From: Chthoniobacterales bacterium
GTDB taxonomy: Bacteria > Verrucomicrobiota > Verrucomicrobiia > Chthoniobacterales > JACTMZ01
Length of the DNA stretch: 64,000 nt
Reading direction: 5' to 3'
Assembly: GCA_021463515.1 (NCBI GenBank)
Contig: JAJTYZ010000112.1
Coordinates: 1,764-65,763 of the forward strand
The notes under the pieces were generated by a model that ran no database searches, was not told where the DNA came from, and worked only from the letters and a program-made list of their open reading frames with translations. Positions 29,418-29,898 of this stretch are shown here, one piece after another. The stretch's first letter is position 1. The number at the start of each line of letters is the position of its first letter. A program made the position numbers and the translations under genes.

Positions 29418-29462
29418 GGGGTTCTTGGTTCTTGGTTCTTGGTGCTTGGTGCTTGGTTTTTG
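29418..29462. repeat. Tandem heptamer array (GTTCTTG/GTGCTTG on +), downstream arm of four-helix cassette 2
   Basis: gg gttcttg gttcttg gttcttg gtgcttg gtgcttg gtttttg. Confidence 0.9.
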
Positions 29463-29466
29463 AAAA

Positions 29467-29833
29467 TTAATCGGCGTTGAGGAGGTATTTGATAAATCCT
29501 CCGATTTTTGCGTAAGTCAACCGGGCAAGCTCGTAGAGTTCTTCAAATTTGGATGGCGAGATATATTCCTGATCCAATGCGACATAAAGCTGACTCTGTA
29601 CTTCGCTGCAGGAACGCTGGGCATAGCGGAGGAACTTGATAAACTCCGCCCTACTGCCACTATCAAACCCTTCGGCAATATTGTGCATAATGGAGCCGGC
29701 CGCCCTCGTGATCTAATCCCGCAAACCAAAGTCACGACTAAATTTCTCCGAGGCAACAGCCGCATAAATTGAGCGCGTCAAGTTCCCTCGCCAATTTCCA
29801 AGCCTCAATCTCCTCGAACCGCGTAATTTTCAT
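29467..29833 (-). pseudogene. Four helix bundle protein pseudogene
   Basis: MKITRFEEIEAWKLAREL, +1 frameshift near 29780, then TRSIYAAVASEKFSRDFGLRD*ITRAAGSIMHNIAEG; TAG at 29713-29715 where the intact paralog has Q. Confidence 0.85.
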
Positions 29834-29837
29834 ACCC

Positions 29838-29898
29838 ACCAAAAACCAAAAACCAAGAACCAGGAACCAAGCACTAAGAACCAGAACCAAGAACCAAA
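29838..29898. repeat. Tandem heptamer array (ACCAAGA on +), upstream arm of four-helix cassette 2, inverted relative to 29418..29462
   Basis: accaaaa accaaaa accaaga accagga accaagc actaaga accaga accaaga accaa. Confidence 0.9.

Follow-up and report, generated by a model that had tools for sequence, protein, structure and literature searches.

A recently inactivated PF05635 gene between inverted heptamer arrays at an hddC-hddA operon junction, and the cassette family to which it belongs

The stretch of 64,000 nucleotides analysed here (the window) comes from a Chthoniobacterales bacterium (GenBank assembly GCA_021463515.1, contig JAJTYZ010000112.1, positions 1,764 to 65,763), represented by a metagenome-assembled genome (MAG) of 2.1 Mb that is 65% complete. 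The open reading frame (ORF) list and Pfam matches give the following gene order on its minus strand: a SIS-domain gene (32166-32720), an epimerase gene (31193-32215), a fused hddC/gmhB gene (29874-31211), the element studied here, and hddA (28437-29417). The element consists of a pseudogene of the PF05635/TIGR02436 four-helix-bundle family, enclosed by two tandem heptamer arrays in inverted orientation (the arms), and it occupies the spacer between the co-directional hddC/gmhB and hddA. The neighbours of this cassette are thus genes of the heptose pathway. The parts of the junction are:

29838-29897, minus strand: upstream arm, on the sense strand a G/T-rich tandem array of GGTTCTT-type heptamers (period 7, 8.7 copies, 83% matches; Tandem Repeats Finder)
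29467-29833, minus strand: PF05635/TIGR02436 four-helix-bundle pseudogene (translations, Pfam, NCBIfam, tblastn)
29420-29462, minus strand: downstream arm, on the sense strand a G-poor CCAAGAA/CCAAGCA array (period 7, 6.1 copies, 91% matches; Tandem Repeats Finder)
29874-31211, minus strand: hddC/gmhB-type fusion of a nucleotidyltransferase and a HAD phosphatase (Pfam NTP_transferase 3.9e-27, Hydrolase_like 1.5e-18)
28437-29417, minus strand: hddA-type GHMP sugar kinase, the downstream gene of the junction (GHMP_kinases_N and GHMP_kinases_C, orthologues)

The arms abut the flanking genes closely. The TAG stop codon of hddC/gmhB (29876-29874) lies inside the upstream arm, which encodes the final few residues of HddC/GmhB and whose outer edge is 22 nt within the gene. 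At the other end, the hddA ATG (29417-29415) stands 2 nt past the end of the downstream arm at 29420. An earlier note on this DNA, made from the letters alone, had placed the stop within the one arm and the ATG directly after the other, and both placements hold. No GGAGG-like motif is present in the sequence ahead of the hddA ATG. The downstream arm is accordingly a forward run of tandem 7-mers ending just before a start codon that lacks a Shine-Dalgarno (SD) motif, as in the TAACTGA-type leaders discussed below, with a unit that differs from TAACTGA.

The two arms are complementary to each other. Their best inverted pairing joins 29420-29462 with 29840-29882 (43 nt, 86% complementary, 377 nt between), in good agreement with the pairing over about 40 bp that had been proposed. 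Measured as the best local reverse-complement alignment between the 170-nt flanks, the pairing scores 58, and 400 random flank pairs from the same genome gave a mean of 16, a 99th percentile of 22 (used as the threshold throughout) and a maximum of 24. The lag-7 periodicity scores of the arms are 24 and 27 of a possible 28. When 29400-29910 of the minus strand is folded as RNA, the arms form the outer stem of a structure with a predicted minimum free energy of -182.7 kcal/mol (z = -4.59), and none of 100 shuffled sequences was as stable. The target locus therefore has inverted period-7 arrays, G-rich upstream and C-rich downstream on the sense strand, like the other cassettes of the family, and an ORF in the loop between stem-forming terminal inverted repeats, like the intervening sequences (IVS) of 23S rRNA. 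A search of Rfam over 13900-30400 gave no matches at E≤1.

The enclosed gene was assigned by profile searches. Its 80-residue C-terminal piece matches PF05635 with an E-value of 1.8e-20 (73.6 bits, cut-off 33.8), a genome scan with PF05635 gives 89.2 bits over model positions 11-98 with one TAG inside the match, and TIGR02436 gives 75.6 bits (cut-off 24, E 3.1e-21). The translation contains the motif R-x3-S-x3-N-x2-E in the stretch TRAAGSIMHNIAEG, which is part of the GxxRxxxSxxxNxxE quoted for the PF05635 family (PMC3936711). The gene runs from an ATG at 29833-29831 to its own TAA stop at 29469-29467 and carries two lesions, (i) a +1 frame change between 29781 and 29774, and (ii) an in-frame TAG at 29715-29713, where five of five intact relatives found by tblastn have glutamine. 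The intact frame of a functional PF05635 member is thus lost.

A frameshift and a nonsense codon had been reported in the earlier note, and both recur in other assemblies. For 28900-30400, 17 sequencing runs from 11 studies contain 97% or more of the words sampled, and contigs of four runs from four studies (soil, bioreactor, biofilm and wastewater metagenomes) span the whole region with zero or one substitution each. The sole substitution is 29166 G>T, found in two of the four contigs, and both lesions are unchanged in all four. The only length difference among the five assemblies is one 7-nt unit at 29438 in the downstream arm, which is present in the window and missing from the other four. 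To the extent that assembled contigs, rather than raw reads, allow, and given that one run may be the window's own source, the lesions are not private assembly errors, since contigs from four studies carry both of them. That the whole arrangement reflects chance resemblance or misassembly has a negligible probability: repeats can break or mis-join assemblies, and several PF05635 matches stop at contig ends, but the assemblies from four studies agree except for one unit and the arm pairing stands well clear of the control maximum. With two lesions in 366 nt, the pseudogene is young and recently inactivated, and intact arms are therefore expected anyway. The strains carrying the target are too alike for a comparison of substitution rates between arms and loop. 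Retention of the stem after loss of the protein, which the earlier note had suggested, is thus not readable from this locus.

The same architecture is widespread. In the genus, the PF05635 family was found in 25 of 31 genomes, and 47 loci were examined, comprising 31 best-scoring or own loci and 16 picked for internal stops, a partial match or a position near hddA; four loci at contig ends and one weak match were left out, and 45 loci have both flanks. Arm pairing is above the 99th percentile in 38 of these 45, as is lag-7 periodicity in 28 upstream and 34 downstream arms. In a sample of the phylum, PF05635 occurs in 107 of 151 genomes, with pairing above threshold in 24 of 27 loci. A search with a five-sequence alignment of one clade (a 12-sequence alignment was too diverse for the pattern search) yielded 80 loci, of which seven were dropped for short flanks; 67 of the remaining 73, named Verrucomicrobiota or Planctomycetota, exceed the pairing threshold. 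Likewise, in a third phylum (that of a MAG named Pseudomonadota), PF05635 was found in 160 of 301 genomes and 26 of 30 loci are above threshold. The proposal that the architecture recurs with different heptamers between a stop codon and the next ATG is therefore borne out far beyond the window.

Arm statistics were taken over the 156 of 187 cassettes that have scored arms. Of the upstream arms, 117 of 132 have 7 as their best period, as do 116 of 131 of the downstream arms. On the sense strand, the upstream arm has more G than C in 148 of 156 cassettes (mean 38% G vs 10% C), and the downstream arm mirrors this. A same-strand ORF ends upstream of the cassette in 123 of 126 cases and a same-strand ORF starts downstream in 118 of 126, with the outer arm edges lying at a median of 3 nt past the stop and 8 nt ahead of the ATG. 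Stop codons in all three frames are carried by 69 of 156 upstream arms vs 13 of 156 downstream arms. The architecture also has variants: at two loci of the GTTCTTN clade (L200, L201), a short hairpin and a G-poor array stand ahead of the PF05635 ORF.

The heptamer follows the clade of the enclosed protein across sites and phyla, which shows that a gene and its arms descend, and have moved, together as a single unit. The nearest relatives of the target protein belong to other families and classes (61-77% identity over 80 residues), and the best match in its own genus and order reaches 39%. Nine relatives that are at least 69% identical (69-77%) have both flanks, and their arms are built of GTTCTTN in five, GTTCACA in one and GTCCTTA in one, with two lacking clear arms. 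These relatives sit at other junctions (e.g., proB-proA for slightly more distant members). Intact proteins of the GTTCTTN clade are encoded at L198 and L284, for example, and one of the GTTGAGA clade on C77. A second clade has GTTGAGA/GTTGAGG arms at sdhA-sdhB (many Verrucomicrobiota), livK-like-livH and tatD-like junctions, and variant GTCGAGA/GTCCAGA arms at czc-like junctions in Planctomycetota. Over 4996 different-site pairs from 147 cassettes, heptamer distance falls with rising protein identity (rho -0.47, reached by 0 of 300 permutations), a figure to be read as a trend and not a probability, given that one clade dominates the sample and kin are not independent.

Searches for arms alone led to the same gene. 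DNA patterns without protein input were run against a collection of 185,579 species. The pattern (GGGAATC)2-N420-450-(GATTCCC)2 returned 13 loci, four of which enclose a PF05635 ORF (Pfam E 1e-31 to 1e-35), in an acidobacteriote, two Pseudomonadota and a member of the Phycisphaerales. The target unit, GTTCTTN, returned 34 loci with a PF05635-like ORF in 14, and nine of these 14 proteins are 56-76% identical to the target, vs a background median of 39%. Named organisms among the arms-only matches include Oceaniferula spumae NT6N (L311), Gimesia maris (L316), Desulfoluna limicola (L296, without an ORF) and Horticoccus sp. (L184). Among 20 arms-only loci without PF05635, no fragment matched the local hidden Markov model and no other recurrent cargo was seen, the loops not having been scanned with Pfam. 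One arms-only match (L295:5058-5432) holds, in place of PF05635, a 125-residue ORF that begins with a zinc-ribbon-like CxxC...CxxC and also has a hydrophobic stretch, and which on its sequence is a possible alternative cargo.

The window contains another cassette of this kind, cassette 1, between an RmlD-like reductase gene and a glycosyltransferase family 2 (GT2) gene:

14759-14800, minus strand: upstream arm, GGCAGTA-like units on the sense strand (sequence)
14408-14758, minus strand: intact PF05635 gene of another clade (Pfam 2e-27; NF008912 5.2e-43)
14379-14409, minus strand: downstream arm, CTGCCAA/CTGACTA units on the sense strand, overlapping the ATG of the GT2 gene (sequence)

The cassette 1 protein matches the structure 2GSC in the Protein Data Bank (E 1.5e-14). 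From the unrelated sequences of the two cassettes the earlier note had concluded that structure and periodicity matter rather than sequence. This does not stand, in view of the correlation given above and the GTTCTTN arms of five of the nine closest relatives: the cassettes differ in heptamer because they belong to different clades, not because the sequence is free. In all, PF05635 matches occur at five places in this MAG, and heptamer-like arrays flank all of them, with a different unit each time. The copy at C88:14249-14556 is split over two frames. A weak match (25 bits) at C37:2513-2731 (L006) lies inside a 235-residue open frame preceded by a non-heptamer inverted repeat, and may be a longer, suffix-domain form of the family. 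Several matches are split or stop at contig ends (C88; L074-L077), and PF05635 cassettes seem to break short-read assemblies.

The two arms of a cassette co-vary. When each upstream arm was paired with the downstream arms of orthologous cassettes (cross pairing), its own partner scored higher in all four junction groups: 33.0 vs 28.6 at the sdh junction (n=24; 0 of 2000 permutations reach the own value), 48.6 vs 35.5 at the liv junction (n=11; 1 of 2000), 44.0 vs 34.6 at the tatD junction (n=8; 7 of 2000) and 49.5 vs 33.3 at the czc junction (n=4; 87 of 2000). Complementarity is therefore renewed within lineages, although this evidence does not separate the RNA level from the DNA level.

The identity of the element and the family pattern are held with high confidence, and the mechanism, which we infer, with moderate confidence. 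The main reading has a probability of about 0.5: a widespread IVS-like operon insertion cassette, working through an RNA stem-loop and serving as a substrate of RNase III, of which this locus holds a recently inactivated copy. The cassette comprises a PF05635/TIGR02436 gene of about 120 codons, a G-rich array upstream and its C-rich reverse complement downstream, placed in the spacer of a co-directional operon. In the operon transcript, the arms would pair into an imperfect stem of 40-60 bp, looping out the cassette and joining the upstream stop and the downstream start in space. RNase III, which cuts the stem of the homologous rRNA intervening sequences, would by analogy act on this stem, and the cassette would probably be cut out; the insertion could therefore be tolerated, or exploited, by the flanking genes. 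A gene for RNase III is present in this genome (C57:9181-9555, 120.5 bits). The tandem 7-nt units may arise by slippage, and the stem could re-pair in a shifted register after indels. Seven is also coprime with the codon length, which we interpret as letting a stop triplet in the unit reach all three frames.

Several observations weigh against this interpretation. No RNA run containing 28900-30400 was found. Any insertion into a short spacer of an operon would produce the tight geometry of stop and ATG. The arm mismatches comprise 120 G.T and 148 C.A and thus have no excess compatible with G.U pairs on the sense strand, in a test that is weak given that most mismatches stem from out-of-register unit variants; there is therefore no positive sign of selection on sense RNA rather than on DNA. 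Seven of the 45 genus loci are under the pairing threshold, and so is cassette 1 with a score of 20. The link between protein and heptamer is also loose: five of the 14 GTTCTTN-armed proteins are at most 38% identical to the target, and the four GGGAATC-armed proteins share only 39-48% identity, except for one pair at 86%. A strict code in which the protein clade specifies the heptamer was consequently rejected, as divergent proteins share GGGAATC and GTTCTTN arms.

The decay of dead cassettes belongs to the same balance. The median arm score is 28 in pseudogene cassettes, whose gene has an internal stop or a frameshift, with seven of nine above 22, and 34 in intact ones, with 31 of 33 above 22. 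At a junction between two transketolase subunit genes (tkt), the cassette is dead in all four species. Between genome G023 and the other three, the loop is 60-61% identical and the downstream arm 61-65%, with 74-81% for the upstream arm, which overlaps a coding end, and 80-82% for the flanking coding sequence. Thus, the arms of other pseudogene cassettes are somewhat weaker and the downstream tkt arm diverges like the loop, which leaves the claim of a stem kept after protein loss weak. Any selection on the stem is weak at best; the arms persist but are not clearly protected.

The hddC-hddA junction itself differs among relatives. Five orthologous spacers were compared. In G028, whose HddA is 80% identical, the spacer is about 32 nt long, has no repeat and is also without an SD motif, so that the array is not needed for hddA. 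G001 likewise has no heptamer element at this junction. G008 (L010) has a tandem array of GTCGAAA type with no scored inverted partner (score 14), and G025 and G015 (L012, L013) have a hairpin of GTAAAAG type with a score of 25 and a loop of about 45 nt. No fewer than three different heptamer elements have thus occupied this spacer. Inspection by eye of the one filled/empty comparison revealed no target-site duplication, and a locus search seeded with HddA returned one distant locus only. Such turnover is what would be expected if the arrays had no function, with slippage-prone repeats gathering in spacers, the cassette a neutral hitchhiker and the complementarity a relic of inverted duplication. 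The unit indel between assemblies and the arms of the dead tkt cassette, which diverge about like its loop, point in the same direction. This account is nevertheless distinctly improbable, as own pairing exceeds cross pairing, cassettes are kept at sdhA-sdhB across many Verrucomicrobiota with mostly intact ORFs, and periodicity and G/C polarity are preserved down to about 50% protein identity.

Arrays of the resident heptamers also occur apart from the genes. Elsewhere in this genome, GTTGAGA arrays were found at three further loci, GGTTCTT at two further and the CTGCCAA type at two, vs about zero for shuffled heptamers. Arrays of GGTTCTT x3 occur in two of the 31 genus genomes, one of which is this genome with its cognate cassette. 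GTTGAGA arrays are present in 24 of the 31, among them four (G028, G023, G017, G016; assemblies 86-95% complete) without a GTTGAGA-clade protein, the best identity to such a protein being 29-43%. The idea that solo arrays require a resident cognate gene was rejected for GTTGAGA on the strength of these four genomes. G028 (95% complete; L226-L233) has about 20 GTTGAGA-type loci, comprising short perfect hairpins and solo C-rich arrays before ATGs.

These dispersed copies bear on a DNA-level alternative, whereby, by analogy with the clade-specific repeats beside RAYT genes (see below), a unit that moves or recombines as DNA ends in these arrays and/or the PF05635 protein binds them, and the complementarity arises by copying between arms or through hairpins of single-stranded DNA. 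We regard it as possible but rather unlikely. It gains from the presence of one clade with its heptamer at many unrelated junctions in different phyla, from the arrays beyond the cassettes and the narrow distribution of GGTTCTT x3, from the short ORF-less hairpins with like arms in G028 and from the missing sense-strand wobble bias. Conversely, GTTGAGA arrays persist in the four genomes without the clade protein, proteins only about 40% identical share a heptamer, and no target-site duplication was recognised. The polarity of the arms relative to transcription (148/156) is unneeded by a pure DNA model, and PF05635 is not known to have a nuclease or recombinase fold or activity. For heptamers of the TAACTGA type, an unidentified binding protein, possibly mobile, has been posited (MacGregor, 2015; PMC4679880), which would suit a DNA-level element.

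Solo arrays stand before start codons as well. G-poor arrays fill the stop-to-ATG spacers at C104, leuC-leuD (C11), groES-groEL (C59) and four spacers on C23, and units resembling ACTGAAA/TAACTGA are seen here as well, at C11 and in the site-C arms. A translational device would account for these positions: the G-poor downstream array would serve as an SD-less leader masked by the G-rich upstream array, and a ribosome terminating at the stop codon on the outer stem edge would open the base of the stem and release the start site, coupling the genes across a 450-nt insertion. The position of the stop (within the upstream arm or at its outer edge), that of the ATG (past the downstream arm by 2 nt here and by 8 nt in the median), the missing GGAGG-like motif ahead of hddA and the excess of three-frame stops in upstream arms (69/156 vs 13/156) all fit such a device, as do TAACTGA repeats ending 1 nt before starts, for which a translational role has been suggested (PMC4679880). 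However, among 38 period-7 arrays of this genome, a start codon follows within 40 nt in 12 in the G-poor sense vs 11 in the opposite sense, and within 12 nt in nine vs five, which is a weak test, and the empty G028 junction also lacks an SD motif. This explanation is therefore judged unlikely. The DNA-level and translational explanations are both compatible with an RNA stem-loop cassette and not mutually exclusive with it.

Some further arrays and hairpins were seen. At C23:2200-3660, small co-directional ORFs are separated by four successive spacers that, together with one ORF end, are AACCAAG/AACCAAA-type arrays ending a few nt before ATGs; their unit is that of the target downstream arm, and no PF05635 gene is nearby. 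CTGCCAA-type arrays (the cassette 1 unit) lie within ORFs of the window, at 14216-14245 in the GT2 gene 13332-14390 and at 3929-3958 in ORF 3639-4376, and a CTCTCAA array (C19:23956-23985) is in frame within a gene that resembles thiC by eye. Heptamer arrays thus apparently also insert into coding sequence. ORF-less hairpins from different genomes (L078, L080, L012) have in common a small GC-rich palindrome of the CGGCCTGCGGCCG type at the apex of the loop. On a 1.5-kb contig (C74:850-1380), CGTAACT, GTTACTC and GGTGATC x11 arrays nearly fill the contig around a small ORF, possibly as another type of element.

The closest known counterpart of an RNA-level cassette is the ORF-bearing IVS of 23S rRNA genes. 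In Coxiella burnetii, the IVS measures 428 nt; RNase III cleaves its terminal stem of 28 bp, and the S23p ORF that the loop contains is undergoing reductive evolution (PMC4990558). The IVS of Leptospira and Coxiella resemble the present element in having a PF05635-family ORF in the loop, a size of about 430-480 nt and a long terminal stem, and further in a sporadic distribution with suspected horizontal transfer and, in Coxiella, in an ORF that decays while the element persists (PMC4990558). However, the present element lies in the spacer of a protein-coding operon and not in helix 9, 25 or 45 of 23S rRNA, its arms are built of tandem heptamers where the IVS is described with 'complementary sequences' and a 28-bp stem (PMC4990558), and cleavage by RNase III was demonstrated there and is presumed here by analogy.

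Intergenic heptamers have been described without the gene. TAACTGA direct repeats are known from marine Beggiatoaceae, Cyanobacteria and Bacteroidetes (MacGregor, 2015; PMC4679880). Like the downstream arms they are tandem 7-mers, G-poor in the sense direction, that mostly stand just before SD-less starts, vary in 7-nt steps and overlap the ends of upstream ORFs, but almost all are direct (one inverted set) and their binding partner is left open (PMC4679880). The main text of that paper, to which the search was confined with the supplementary tables outside it, contains no occurrence of '23S', 'S23' or 'four-helix'. The GGGAATC/GGGGAYT repeats of Xanthomonas and Nostoc were read as G-quadruplex formers (Rehm et al., 2015; PMC4692102). 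These too are G-rich heptamer arrays, with 70-75 convergent, stem-loop-capable pairs in Xanthomonas and positions within operons (pecE-pecF) in Nostoc, whereas most arms here are without G-runs; '23S' is absent from the text of PMC4692102 as searched.

Two other systems were considered and set aside. The PF05635 structure 2GSC is homologous to Avd (4DWL) of diversity-generating retroelements (DGR) (PMC10053308), so that the protein has a homologous four-helix bundle, and NF033474 gives 25 bits on a sister cassette protein, far under its 80-bit cut-off. Membership of a DGR was rejected, as there is no adjacent reverse transcriptase and no template or variable repeat; reverse transcriptase matches lie only on C51 and C110, not C16. 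In REP/REPIN-RAYT systems, built of repetitive extragenic palindromes (REP), a small gene lies between inverted clade-specific short repeats, with ORF-less hairpin copies dispersed in the genome, and the encoded RAYT is a Y1 transposase. A gene with inverted clade-specific repeats and dispersed ORF-less hairpins is found here too, as in REPIN-RAYT systems and miniature inverted-repeat transposable elements, but the present repeats are tandem arrays of variable unit number and persist without the cognate gene. The enclosed gene is PF05635, a family with no known catalytic activity, and not a transposase, and the arms differ among the 3-4 cassettes of this genome, so the element was not assigned to either group.

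PF05635 genes have been noted between cmr3 and cmr2 (PMC3936711) and in a Riemerella capsule locus (PMC13688083), with no comment on their flanks in the text consulted. A literature search that excluded subscription journals and supplements found no published link between the PF05635/TIGR02436 family and heptamer arrays at its flanks. Already in print are the ORFs of IVS with their inverted repeats, the TAACTGA leaders and the convergent GGGAATC arrays, and the link between gene family and heptamer is new in the literature searched. A broader proposal is that PF05635 genes with inverted arrays are autonomous 'operon introns' of many phyla, inserting between cistrons, looped out and probably excised at the RNA level, which seed ORF-less hairpins and solo leaders (short tandemly repeated repetitive (STRR) sequences, TAACTGA, GGGAATC), with the PF05635 protein as a repeat-recognising factor; this is speculative, and we doubt that it holds in full.

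If the cassette reading is true, it would provide one frame for the ORF of rRNA IVS, stand-alone Avd-like genes and over-represented intergenic heptamers, and one that is testable with one protein and one unit per clade. It would also call for caution with guilt by association, given that PF05635 genes in cas, capsule, O-antigen and GDP-heptose operons would be more simply explained as insertions than as parts of these pathways. Furthermore, since DNA patterns of the arms alone retrieve the gene across phyla, a simple annotation rule would become available for the cassettes and their ORF-less remnants.

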